Part shown: positions 1 to 40,960 of the stretch, piece by piece
Numbering within the stretch: position 1 is the stretch's first letter
How the letters are laid out: every line of letters begins with the position of its first letter
Source of the DNA: a virus
DNA length: 64,000 nt
Strand: one strand, 5' to 3'
Virus record (IMG/VR): IMGVR_UViG_3300032213_002832
Coordinates: 103,516-167,515 of that record
Position numbers and translations under genes: made by a program
Notes under the pieces: model-generated
Told to the model about the DNA's origin: nothing
What the model saw: the letters and a program-made list of their open reading frames with translations, nothing else
Databases searched by the model: none

Positions 1-294
1 GACTGGTAACCTACCATCATGCTTATCTAGTATATGTTGCCATCCAGCTTTATTAAATAAGTTAGGGCCTAAGTGCTTAGCAAAGAAAGCATCTGCTTCA
101 TCTATCTTCTCTTGCGTTACAACTTTACCACTAAGGTAACGTCCAATAATATACTGTAATCCAAAGAAGGTTGTCTTTGTAAACTTCCCACCTTTGCGAG
201 CTTCTAAGTATGAATATACTGAAGTAGTTCCAGGTGGATATTGCTTGAAATGAGTTGCCTTATAACTGTCCGTAAGTAGCATGATGTTGTCCAT
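1..294 (-). CDS. nadV: Nicotinamide phosphoribosyltransferase (NAMPT), 5' part; runs off the window
   Basis: Manual translation MDNIMLLTDSYKATHFKQYPPGTTSVYSYLEARKGG...FFGLQY...GRLPV matches the NAMPT N-terminus (TDSYK..H..QYP); AGGAG RBS upstream; not in ORF track. Confidence 0.92.
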   Translation of the reverse strand, partial: MDNIMLLTDSYKATHFKQYPPGTTSVYSYLEARKGGKFTKTTFFGLQYIIGRYLSGKVVTQEKIDEADAFFAKHLGPNLFNKAGWQHILDKHDGRLPV

Positions 295-328
295 AATATT
301 CTCCTTGTTGAAGTCCGCAACCCGCAGA

Positions 329-1360
329 CTATAATTTGTTTGTGAAATAATTGATTATATGTAAGTGATCCTCATAGAATTCTGACTCTTTAATAAATAA
401 GTCTGCTATTGGAATCCATATCGCTCTTTCAGCATCGTCATCACCTTTAACTTGTGGAAGTTGTCCACCGTCAGGTAGTTTTACGCAAAAAGCATTAGTA
501 ATAGTACGACCACGTAGCGATCTACTCGGATTATCAAATACACGCTGGTCAACTATGTATTTCATTAATGTATCTTTTGGTACTAAGATACGAGTCTCTT
601 CTTTGAGCTCACGAAATGCTGAGTCAATAATAGTTTCATTTTGGTTTACGAAGCCACCTGGAAGTGCTAGAAGCCCTTTACCAGGATTAAACTTCCTACG
701 AATAACTAGAACATGGGCGTTTTTAACTACTAGAACATCAGTAGTGACAAAGGTTACTGGATATGGTGCCATTGCCCACATGTCTTTATAATCTTTAATA
801 AACTTCCACTCTTCAACTAAGTTAGTATATGTTGTAGTCTTTTCCCAATTTGTTAAATAATCTGTTACTTCTTTAGCTAAATTATTGGTAAACTGAGGGT
901 TGTTTTGAAAGTATAAGTTACGAATCTCAGTGGCATGTGTTACATTTCTAGCGATAGAGAGTTCTCGTTTCCAACTCTCTGGAAGAGCATCTAGATACCA
1001 AGAGCTCTCATCTTTATTAGAACCTAATACGCATATGCTTGAAGTTTCCACATTATATATTTGATTCATTACTGAGTTATGTAAGTCAGTAAACCAAGCT
1101 GTATCATTATAGTAATAATCACGAACTTGTACAAAAATAAGTCGAGTATTTTCTAATTTAGAGAAACAAACTCTAACCATCTCTTCACGTTCTTGAGCAT
1201 TCCAGGGGTTTTTAATGTTTGGGGCAGCACGATGTGAGCCAAGAGCAATAATTACATTATTGGCTAATTCTAATCCGCGCTTGATTTGATTGATGTGTTC
1301 TTTGTGGGGTGGTTGGAGTCGGCCAATGAAAACCGCATAGTCATACTTATACTTATTCAT
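329..1360 (-). CDS. nadM: Bifunctional NMN adenylyltransferase / ADP-ribose pyrophosphatase (NadM-Nudix)
   Basis: N-terminal FIGRLQPPHKEH (HxGH-like) motif, HATEIR, C-terminal Nudix box GGFVNQNETIIDSAFRELKEET; adjacent to NAMPT. Confidence 0.92.
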   Translation of the reverse strand: MNKYKYDYAVFIGRLQPPHKEHINQIKRGLELANNVIIALGSHRAAPNIKNPWNAQEREEMVRVCFSKLENTRLIFVQVRDYYYNDTAWFTDLHNSVMNQIYNVETSSICVLGSNKDESSWYLDALPESWKRELSIARNVTHATEIRNLYFQNNPQFTNNLAKEVTDYLTNWEKTTTYTNLVEEWKFIKDYKDMWAMAPYPVTFVTTDVLVVKNAHVLVIRRKFNPGKGLLALPGGFVNQNETIIDSAFRELKEETRILVPKDTLMKYIVDQRVFDNPSRSLRGRTITNAFCVKLPDGGQLPQVKGDDDAERAIWIPIADLFIKESEFYEDHLHIINYFTNKL

Positions 1361-32617: not shown

Positions 32618-33097
32618 TTACTTAACCAAGTGGCGTAGTGCTTCAGGTAGAGCGTCAAGGTTGATTGTCTTGACTTTCTTAGCTACTTTGGCTGAATTCA
32701 ACTCAGCAGTTCTAGAGAAGATTGCTGCGTCAATTTCAGTGATCGCATCAGCGTCAGAGAGAGTTGAGCGTAGAGCTTTAAGTGCTTTTAGCTGATCATC
32801 ACCAGCTCCACTTCGGCTTCCTGGGTTTTTGATCTCAGATTTAACTCCACCATTTAGTCTTTTGTCTTTGCGTAAGTGGTTGTTTACCATGCCAACTACA
32901 TAACCTTTAACTTTAGCATCTGTGTCGTACTTGGCTTTGGCTGATGCTGTGAAGTCAACTTTGCCAGAGAGAATACCAGATGTTACAATCTGGATTACAC
33001 TATTTCTCTCTTCTTTTGTCAACTCAACAGCTGAATCAAAGCTGTCTTGTCCCAAAGCACCACATACTGCGTGAAATACTGCGTCGTTCTGCTGCAT
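32618..33097 (-). CDS. 'NHLRKDKRLNGG' family protein
   Basis: Start moved to MQQNDAVF (AGGAG RBS); close paralog of 37640 and 39745. Confidence 0.8.
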   Translation of the reverse strand: MQQNDAVFHAVCGALGQDSFDSAVELTKEERNSVIQIVTSGILSGKVDFTASAKAKYDTDAKVKGYVVGMVNNHLRKDKRLNGGVKSEIKNPGSRSGAGDDQLKALKALRSTLSDADAITEIDAAIFSRTAELNSAKVAKKVKTINLDALPEALRHLVK

Positions 33098-33228
33098 AAA
33101 TACTCCTAAAATGTTGATGTTATATACTAAAACTCGTATACAACTCTCGTTTCGGTTGATCACAACCTATTTGTCATCAACTTACAAGTTAACATCGATT
33201 CGGTTTAAAACCTTGTTAGTCGGCTGGT

Positions 33229-37639: not shown

Positions 37640-38104
37640 CTACTTAACTAGATATCTTAGGCTTTCAGGTAGAGCGTCTATGTTTATAGTTGCTTTAGGT
37701 TTAGCTTGCTGTAGTTCAGCTAGTCTTTCAGCTATTGCTTCATCAACTTGTGCTAATTGCTCTGGATCAGTGATACCATCTCGTAGTGTTTTCAGTGCTT
37801 TAAGTTGCTCATCTTTAGGTCTAGAGGTTTTAGGTATGTCTTGTATACCACCATTTAATCTCTTATCTCTTCTTAAGTGATTACTAACCATTCCAACAAC
37901 ATACTCTTTTACTAGCTTACTCGTATTGTATTTGGCTTTCGCTTCAGTAGAGAAGTCAACTTTGTTAGCTAATATGCCTTCAGTCACTATATTCACTACA
38001 TTATTCCTCTCTTCTTTAGAGAGTTCAACTGCTGAGTCAAAGCTTGTTTTGTCTAATACTGAGCAAACTGCTTGAAAAACTGCATTGATTTGAGATGTTG
38101 TCAT
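37640..38104 (-). CDS. 'NHLRKDKRLNGG' family protein
   Basis: YVVGMVSNHLRRDKRLNGG...INIDALPESLRYLVK. Confidence 0.8.
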   Translation of the reverse strand: MTTSQINAVFQAVCSVLDKTSFDSAVELSKEERNNVVNIVTEGILANKVDFSTEAKAKYNTSKLVKEYVVGMVSNHLRRDKRLNGGIQDIPKTSRPKDEQLKALKTLRDGITDPEQLAQVDEAIAERLAELQQAKPKATINIDALPESLRYLVK

Positions 38105-38564: not shown

Positions 38565-38656
38565 GTAAACTCCTTTGTTATTAATTATATAAGTTTAACT
38601 CGATTCGGTTTAGAAAAGAGGGGTAAACATCCATATTCACCCCACTTTATATCAAC

Positions 38657-38983
38657 TTACTTCTTTCTATATACTTCCAACCCATAATATAATCCATTAC
38701 CACTTCCATCCATATCCACACCCATATTCACATATCCTAACTTATTCATTTCACTTTCCAATCTATCAAAAAATCCATTCCATAACCAACCTTGAAACCT
38801 ATCTTTCTCATCACTACTCATATCATCATCCATCCAATCATAATGAATAACCACATCACTATCACACAACACTATATCACTATATTCAAAACTACCTCTC
38901 ACATCATCATGATTACTCACTTCAACACTTCCAAACTTATCCCATGAATTCAAATTAACTAACAACTCATTAACTTTATTCAT
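38657..38983 (-). CDS. Acidic early protein encoded by an almost cytosine-free mRNA
   Basis: Only 4 G on the plus strand in 327 nt (38794, 38845, 38911, 38946); no Ala, Pro or Thr; GAGG RBS, promoter motif 39037. Confidence 0.8.
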   Translation of the reverse strand: MNKVNELLVNLNSWDKFGSVEVSNHDDVRGSFEYSDIVLCDSDVVIHYDWMDDDMSSDEKDRFQGWLWNGFFDRLESEMNKLGYVNMGVDMDGSGNGLYYGLEVYRKK

Positions 38984-39059
38984 GAAAACCTCTTTAATTA
39001 ATTAATAACTTAATTGTTATTAATTATATAATATAGTCGGATCGGTTAAGTGGGCTAGA

Positions 39060-39100
39060 GCGTAGCAGTGTCAGTGATAAGCGGGACCGAAGTCCCGCTT
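39060..39100 (-). repeat. Terminator + 16-nt box cassette
   Basis: 41 nt identical to 39695-39735. Confidence 0.88.
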
Positions 39101-39744: not shown

Positions 39745-40227
39745 TTACTTAACCAAGTATCGTAGCGATTCAGGCAGAGCATCTATGTTGATCGTTGCTT
39801 TCGGCTTGCGTGTTGCTTGTATCTCAAGTGTGCGGTTAGCAATCGCTGCTTCAATCTCATGCCACTCTTCAGTGCCGTTGTCGAACGTACTCTGTAACAA
39901 CTTCAGTGCTTTAAGCTGCTCATCACCAGATCCAGCACGACTTCCAGGGTTTTTAATCACACGTCCAACACCACCGTTCATTCGCTTATCATTTCGTAGT
40001 TGATGACTCACCATACCAACTACATAACCTTTCACCTTCGCTTCAGTATCGTACTTCACCTTCGCATCATCACTAAATCCAACCTTACCAGCTAATATCC
40101 CTTCAGTGACCAAACCAATAACCGTTGCTCGTTGCTCATCACTCACTTCAACCGCACTATCAAACCCATCACACTTCAACACTGCACATACTGCTGCGAA
40201 TACTGCGTCATTTTGCTTCATAGTCAT
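39745..40227 (-). CDS. 'NHLRKDKRLNGG' family protein
   Basis: QNDAVFAAVC...YVVGMVSHQLRNDKRMNGG...KNPGSR. Confidence 0.8.
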   Translation of the reverse strand: MTMKQNDAVFAAVCAVLKCDGFDSAVEVSDEQRATVIGLVTEGILAGKVGFSDDAKVKYDTEAKVKGYVVGMVSHQLRNDKRMNGGVGRVIKNPGSRAGSGDEQLKALKLLQSTFDNGTEEWHEIEAAIANRTLEIQATRKPKATINIDALPESLRYLVK

Positions 40228-40539: not shown

Positions 40540-40960
40540 AGGATTCAGAGAGGGTGCGCAGTGGTACACCCGCTAGCTTGAGCAGCAGGTACTAGTACCT
40601 CGAGTCGGTTGCCCTCCCCTGCCCGGTCTCTCTCTACATATCACTTTTTCATTTCTAGGGCCCGGCCCCACCCTACCCACTGGCTTGAGGGAGAATCTAG
40701 GGTCCCTTGGCTAGCTGGTACCACAAAATCACATTTATATAAATAACTTCACACTACTCCTCACAAACTCACAGCAGCCACACGCACCCATAATTTACAT
40801 ACACACCATATTTCCATATATGCTCCATATAAACAGCCCACATTTCCATATATCACACTACTCCTCATATCCATACAACCACACCCAATATCACAACAAG
40901 GTTTCGTATAATCTCATCACGCACCGCACCTTTTATTCATAAATGAATAAAACAATGTGC
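40540..40960. other. Strand-switch intergenic region (candidate origin or genome end)
   Basis: Divergent gene blocks; GC-rich 40610-40720; G-poor C/A tract with CACACTACTCCTCA x2 and ATTTCCATATA x2; palindrome 40931-40952. Confidence 0.5.

Follow-up and report, generated by a model that had tools for sequence, protein, structure and literature searches.

The phage gene at 38657-38983 of the window (the 64,000-nucleotide stretch of DNA analysed here) is almost free of cytosine, and the DNA of its homologues indicates that this C-free strand is the limit of a ban on CG and GC steps. The core of the ban appears to be CG plus GC, with GNC added in stricter members, while the window clade and one further homologue (L010) drop nearly all C. 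What looks in one gene like evidence for C counting thus becomes, through comparison with homologues, a graded ban (CG, GC, GNC, all C) and a testable rule. We tentatively favour an explanation in which the cassette carrying the gene evades a DNA-level agent that acts where modified C stands opposite modified C, and in which the acidic product counters this agent; a counter-defence role is our best guess for the protein.

Composition, alleles and architecture of the cassette

The gene and the elements around it are as follows (window positions):

38657..38983, minus strand: gene of an acidic, aromatic 108-aa protein, with 4 C and without CG, GC, GNC or CNG
38607..39037, no strand assigned: tract without CG or GC, its flanking sites 432 nt apart, the genome's longest (next 169)
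38609..39059, no strand assigned: whole cassette, missing from related contigs that are joined across it
38614..38643, minus strand: the gene's own intrinsic terminator (GGGG...CCCC stem, C-free loop, U-tract)
38989..38995, minus strand: Shine-Dalgarno sequence AAAGAGG, retained in alleles
38999..39026, minus strand: 11-bp inverted repeat (6-nt loop) that overlaps the likely start site and the -10 box
39023..39028, minus strand: putative -10 box TATAAT, from alignment of repeated early promoters
39036..39049, minus strand: upstream promoter motif TTAACCGATCCGAC, a variant of the phage's repeated AACCGAATCGAG, containing the tract's first upstream CG
39060..39075, minus strand: conserved inter-cassette motif ACTGACACTGCTACGC, situated at the cassette edge and found upstream in most homologue loci

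A recount of the 327-nt minus-strand ORF gave T116, A107, G100 and C4, with plus-strand G only at 38794, 38845, 38911 and 38946, that is, in Gln64 (CAA), His47 (CAT), His25 (CAT) and Ser13 (TCA), reproducing all four C and their codons as listed in an initial annotation of this DNA. The C-avoiding codon choice described there is borne out as well, since none of the 47 NNY codons ends in C and Ala, Pro and Thr are absent, an absence that by itself has a P of 1e-9 to 2e-7 for a 108-aa protein. The binomial comparison with all genes of the genome, also proposed there, places the gene outside the distribution: among 255 ORFs called mechanically in the 167.5-kb complete phage record (mean C fraction 0.156, sd 0.039) it is the lowest, at 0.012 (P 2e-20), and the next lowest ORF has 0.057. 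Encoding this protein with the codon usage of the genome would take 31.8 C on average, against the 4 seen (P(<=4) 1e-15), and with early-region codon usage as the reference P is 2e-13. No plus-strand run without G elsewhere in the genome exceeds 66 nt, against 170 nt at 38624-38793. That the neighbours show only ordinary skew holds in part, the early region at 33-39 kb being mildly depleted of C beside G overall; the WWC/SSU codon preference, an ordinary codon-usage trend, may explain this mild tendency. Each of the five C in the window unit stands within TCA, a context that we rejected as a rule for residual C, as L010 does not share it; it is probably a codon constraint.

The identical four C recur in two alleles recovered from independent metagenomes (88% and 80% amino acid identity), so the pattern is not an assembly artefact. 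Pairwise differences between alleles never involve C (0/24, 0/40 and 0/37), whereas in the same comparisons of the adjacent 81-aa gene C is involved in 31/63, 38/69 and 7/19 of them, and a fourth allele (run X5), with 22 differences across the cassette, leaves the gene without any additional plus-strand G. These comparisons support the view that selection, or an equally gene-specific force, maintains the low-C pattern; once C is removed from the mutational opportunity omega is 0.5-0.7, and we make no claim of positive selection. The selection proposed in the annotation is therefore favoured by the C-free allele differences, but the agents it named are not supported as a family-wide cause (see below). 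Divergence from the L001 allele is 7% in the gene and 26% in the adjacent gene, which suggests exchange of the cassette. The idea of a diversity-generating retroelement target was discarded, there being no reverse transcriptase (no PF00078 match in the genome) and no template copy (no second copy of the gene by blastn).

Promoter motif, ribosome-binding site and terminator, all previously ascribed to the gene, were each located at it. Contigs of runs X2 and X3 connect 38609 to 39059 with 11 other letters between, so that promoter, gene and terminator form one accessory cassette, lying in an early region that is an array of repeated promoter-terminator cassettes. The CG/GC-free tract spans from the promoter motif to past the terminator, which has no CG or GC step, unlike the adjacent UUCG-type terminators, and which shares its design with that of L013. 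The stem of the inverted repeat varies in sequence between members with pairing retained (covariation), and among the 13 promoters with the motif in the window only this one carries the repeat; its left arm is probably not transcribed, and the repeat could be an operator or a hairpin formed in DNA. A promoter inverted repeat over the -10 box is found in all CG/GC-poor members and is weak or displaced in normal members. A 50-nt RNA hairpin that could delay translation is predicted over the start codon (window 38934-38988), and in L010 too, and a non-coding plus-strand G-poor tract (window 40700-40940) lies where transcription diverges, a point some 1.6 kb away from the gene.

The banned steps in homologue DNA

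We compared homologue DNA at 15 loci, seven of them chosen for low Ala/Pro/Thr, which alone lowers GC, not CG. Whether homologues also avoid C had been named as a check, and the answer was split: L010 (45% identity, in a locus of 44% GC) does so, with 3 C at positions other than those of the window gene, several others stand at normal C, which the annotation had named as a refuting outcome, but the series reveals a CG/GC rule and not chance. C per gene is 15 in L013 and L020, 24 in L021, 25 in L014, 35 in L026, 36 in L011 and 59 in L027, where C makes up a normal 17%; L022 and L015-L019 are normal members. Among the 16 homologue genes, the counts of CG/GC are 0/0 in the window gene, L001, L002, L010, L013 and L021, 0/1 in L020 and L026 and 3/1 in L027, a near-absence in nine members, whereas members with 15-59 C should have 4-15. 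Five genes pooled among the members with 15-59 C, two of them obtained after the rule had been formulated, have 3 CG and 3 GC against 41 expected each. Since these members still ban CG/GC, the rule is not 'no C', and since GG steps are plentiful (18-41 per gene), the ban covers opposite-orientation steps only. Synonymous-codon shuffles do not abolish the depletion, which normal members lack.

In the intermediate genes C is located in G-free patches. At third-position pyrimidines C fills 8/171 sites next to a G, 11/55 at a distance of two and 35/59 beyond that, the corresponding values in neighbouring genes being 193/619, 155/281 and 239/365; C frequency is normal in five members where no G lies within 2 nt, and the test rules against a uniform bias away from C (z -4.2). 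The five strictest genes together contain CG 0, GC 1, GNC 1, CNG 12 and CNNG 20 times, with 17.7 expected for each. The CG/GC rule was written down before L026 and L027 were read, and these blind genes gave 0/1 against 10.4 expected and 3/1 against 15.0 expected, respectively. Their GNC counts were normal (8 and 12 against 10 and 15 expected), so GNC failed as part of the core rule and was retained for the stricter members only. In the L021 operon the pattern fades by degrees, with 1.2 kb free of CG, 0.7 kb free of GC and 0.35 kb free of GNC, and in L021, L026 and L027 the ban extends into co-transcribed genes. The CG O/E is 0.84-1.05 in normal-member loci and about 0.6 in banned-member loci, a contrast that may reflect different hosts.

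A mutational scar, left by deamination of non-template C at a high rate, mostly beside G and without benefit to the phage, seems to us distinctly improbable. It would suit the G/T-rich coding strand and the fade along the L021 operon, but neighbouring cassettes sharing the promoter motif are near normal, the four C persist in alleles 7-12% apart although residue 47, His in the window alleles, is Tyr in most family members, and the ban tracks the gene family over 30-45% identity, in a genome with a GC O/E of 1.18.

Agents whose effect scales with the number of C, among them the previously suggested CTP depletion, ddhCTP chain termination and context-free G adducts, cannot explain L027 or L021 and do not serve as family-wide causes, homologues having up to 59 C. 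ACA-cleaving MazF, another suggestion, fares no better: ACA is absent from the window gene but makes up 23/122 residual contexts in low-C members, against 18 expected. Sparing of the message under CTP depletion or ddhCTP chain termination might contribute further pressure, but solely in the two C-free lineages, and even this is very unlikely. Only the window alleles and L010 have C reduced regardless of context, missing even far from G (0/11 and 1/11), and the 3' tail is C-free, but members with 15-59 C and C-dense patches retain the CG/GC ban, and a literature search gave no CTP-depleting defence.

Escape from Rho-dependent termination of the untranslated nascent transcript has the slimmest of chances. 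Rho reads CC/UC and drives a purine bias (PMC13323073), and is likewise a nucleic-acid-reading factor that shapes coding sequence down to codon choice; the gene is 63% purine, with C far below G. That bias, however, is genome-wide and directed at pyrimidines/YC, whereas the present ban is limited to the cassette and directed at CG/GC. CC/UC and pyrimidine runs are not avoided: residual C is mostly in UC/AC, enriched in TCT/ACT/TCA and clustered in G-free rut-like patches, T (U) is not reduced (35%), and C in L027 is normal.

Probable cytosine modification and candidate agents

In the explanation that we favour, selection would keep CG and GC out of an accessory early transcription unit, these being the steps at which opposite-orientation G:C pairs stand side by side and C faces C across the duplex. 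The agent would be one or more host enzymes, of the McrA/GlaI/AoxI kind or undescribed, that recognise modified C on both strands and break the DNA. A step-free unit would stay intact and expressible while other DNA is attacked, and its acidic product would probably inhibit the agent. Removal of coding-strand C would be the one-letter solution allowed by the genetic code, and would also take out almost all C-N20-23-G sites (PvuRts1I/CMoRE kind); C-N20-G sites number 33 per kb in the genome and 2 in the cassette.

The phage encodes what looks like a C5-cytosine modification pathway. A TS-fold gene (genome 86091-86867) has its best matches in MilA (E 1e-17) and T4 dCMP hydroxymethylase (8e-16), with ThyA at 2e-5. 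It has Asp at the N177 and L143 positions (N177D and L143D), which is tied to hmdCMP synthesis, and is without D169N, which marks 5-hydroxy-C synthases (PMC13326640). Genes for a dCMP deaminase, a dUTPase and a dNMP kinase are also present, and a search of the genome for a GT1/GT2 glycosyltransferase found none. The phage DNA therefore probably carries 5-hydroxymethylcytosine (hmC). Normal members also occur in relatives that share the hydroxymethylase (61-62%), so that the enzyme is at most a precondition of the ban.

Such DNA would match the substrates of modification-dependent nucleases. McrA ((Y>R)mCGR), GlaI (RmCGY), AoxI (RGmCY), BisI (GmCNGC) and PvuRts1I (PMC3874153), and CMoRE, which requires two hmC in C-N11/N9-G (PMC12923530), read short degenerate sites that are CG/GC-cored or carry modified C on two strands, although no single enzyme covers CG, GC and GNC together. 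As for two-strand sites, CG/GC is missing in nine members, and C-N20-23-G is low in the window only; C..G at 21-24 nt is not depleted in the intermediates, so the PvuRts1I spacing was rejected as a rule for them. One-strand enzymes (McrBC at RmC, the MspJI family) are not evaded because the template strand is C-rich, one-strand sites being abundant, and the glycosylase Brig3 (10.64898/2026.02.25.707755) would damage that strand too. CNG is tolerated in members, though it is the core of SauUSI-type sites. We did not find evasion by purging the sequence of one gene in PMC3874153, PMC12923530 or 10.64898/2026.02.25.707755. It also counts against the favoured explanation that the promoter motif holds CG, GATC or TCGA and that CATG, TCATGA and GAATTC are kept in the gene.

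Because CG and GC are both self-symmetric and GG is kept, a reading in duplex DNA would be the simplest. Coding strand, mRNA and displaced strand are one sequence, and an RNA-level agent is also compatible with it. Toxins of the MqsR type cleave RNA at GC, and an mRNA that survives one or more host toxins reading GC and CG, with a product that neutralises the toxin, would account for a tract that covers promoter to terminator, reaches co-transcribed genes and leaves the 3' UTR C-free over 33-36 nt in four loci. We nevertheless consider this unlikely: CG and GC make up precisely the set of self-complementary S-S dinucleotides, a pairing that a single duplex agent accounts for but a single RNase does not, and we know of no single RNase that prefers both GC and CG. 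Residual C, moreover, is not consistently buried in stems; shielding there was true of the window gene and L002 and weakly of L013 and L021, opposite in L014 and L020, and was rejected.

Blockage of transcription by a small molecule, intercalating or cross-linking at CG/GC, which the acidic aromatic product would bind or destroy, is rather improbable. Anthracyclines prefer (A/T)CG and (A/T)GC. For G-G cross-linkers the targets are CG, GC and GNC, with CNG a poor one, and the order CG, GC > GNC > CNG in the five strictest genes matches this geometry. The invariant D43, S94 and Y100 of the protein suggest a pocket, and anthracyclines are reported to stop early phage infection (PMC13250531). The fit is post hoc, however, no producer host is known, and such drugs bind other steps too and would strike the promoter's CG.

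Ordinary avoidance of Type II restriction sites over many hosts, the product then being a DNA-mimic inhibitor like Ocr or Arn, is quite doubtful. G/C-containing palindromes of 4 and 5 bases are about halved beyond composition (13 against 20 and 17 against 31), and the genome's longest palindrome-free stretch (306 nt) lies here. T5 and T7 have lost restriction sites in the region injected first. A similar loss in Murciavirus/Autographiviridae (PMC12455610) sets a precedent. The cassette resembles these cases in its early, variable location (a promoter-terminator array, from which it is absent in relatives), the local loss of recognition words and the adjoining presumed anti-defence genes. Known cases, however, drop one 4-8 bp or bipartite motif, whereas the cassette drops two dinucleotides or a whole letter at the price of amino acid changes. 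Three quarters of the missing CG/GC would belong to 4-mers that are not palindromes (23.7 expected, 1 seen in all), CATG and GAATTC are retained, and hmC protects DNA from 82% of Type II enzymes (PMC7653180).

No C-free or CG/GC-free phage gene came up in a literature search; new here is a graded homologue series that names the word under selection. Selection on DNA words would have been strong enough to strip Ala, Pro and Thr from a protein. It is possible, though doubtful, that the hosts of this hmC phage group have an undescribed C-facing-C defence at CG/GC, that the mobile step-free cassette encodes its inhibitor and that the banned word predicts its specificity. Should such a cassette encode an antidote to the very agent that it avoids, genes lacking a dinucleotide would flag counter-defence proteins from sequence alone, and the banned words would reveal the specificity of unknown defences.

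The protein family and its phages

A profile search gave 60 representatives at 26-57% identity to the 108-aa protein, most with ordinary Ala/Pro/Thr content. D43, G93, S94, Y100 and a DGSGxGLYYG hairpin are invariant and the motif Y/H-D-x-x-D-D is also typical; all members are acidic, with a net charge of -12 in the window protein and -5 to -15 in the family. Neither Pfam, PHROGs nor PADLOC has a matching family, and cultured phages and GTDB genomes gave no match and so no host assignment. By sequence, the product is the founding member of an unnamed phage family without known relatives. In a poorly resolved tree the L010 protein falls in a weakly supported group with the window clade and the 36-C member. 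The match in L003 was discarded as spurious, being antisense inside an unrelated large gene.

The AlphaFold2 model (pLDDT 94) is alpha/beta. Searches of PDB, BFVD, VIA-wide and Atlas gave alpha/beta matches at background only, with no Foldseek match at E<=0.001, and the best VIA match (Z 7.8, nitroreductase-like folds) is inside the background. Ocr, Arn and Ugi are small (~105 aa), acidic, early DNA-mimic anti-restriction proteins, and the product is likewise small, strongly acidic and early, but its DGSGxGLYYG hairpin is more like a binding or catalytic site. These three are not among the fold matches listed, which excludes nothing, and no sequence match to them was found. Ocr is described as a DNA-mimic anti-restriction protein in PMC7064336.

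Behind the gene in three loci (L021:2583-2960, L026:1304-1726 and L027:487-813) stands a second unnamed acidic family, Cys/His-rich (D/W-x-G-H-C/S-Y-S) and possibly a partner of the 108-aa protein, whose genes are CG-poor (0, 0 and 3 against 14-17 expected) and which is absent from the window's genome.

The phage itself, judged by its genes, belongs to an uncultured group without a close isolate. Its major capsid protein (genome 63344-64792) has about 31% identity to SP-10/SPO1-like phages and 67-71% to the IMG/VR contigs G001 and G002. TGCA is avoided genome-wide (O/E 0.28), which we count in favour of the modification-dependent explanation, and its density of 16-34 per 10 kb at genome 40-80 kb, against 1-9 elsewhere, suggests a recombined block. 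A NAMPT and NMNAT-Nudix pair, a NAD+ rebuilding pathway, lies at genome 102406-104875 (L009, window 1-1360), with an RNA ligase and a phosphoesterase-kinase nearby. Three paralogues of an early protein of 154-181 aa (window 32618-33163, 37640-38104 and 39745-40227) have INIDALPESLRYLVK-like C-terminal tails, which the tail of family member P0057 resembles, and two of the three paralogue genes also separate G from C (z about -4).
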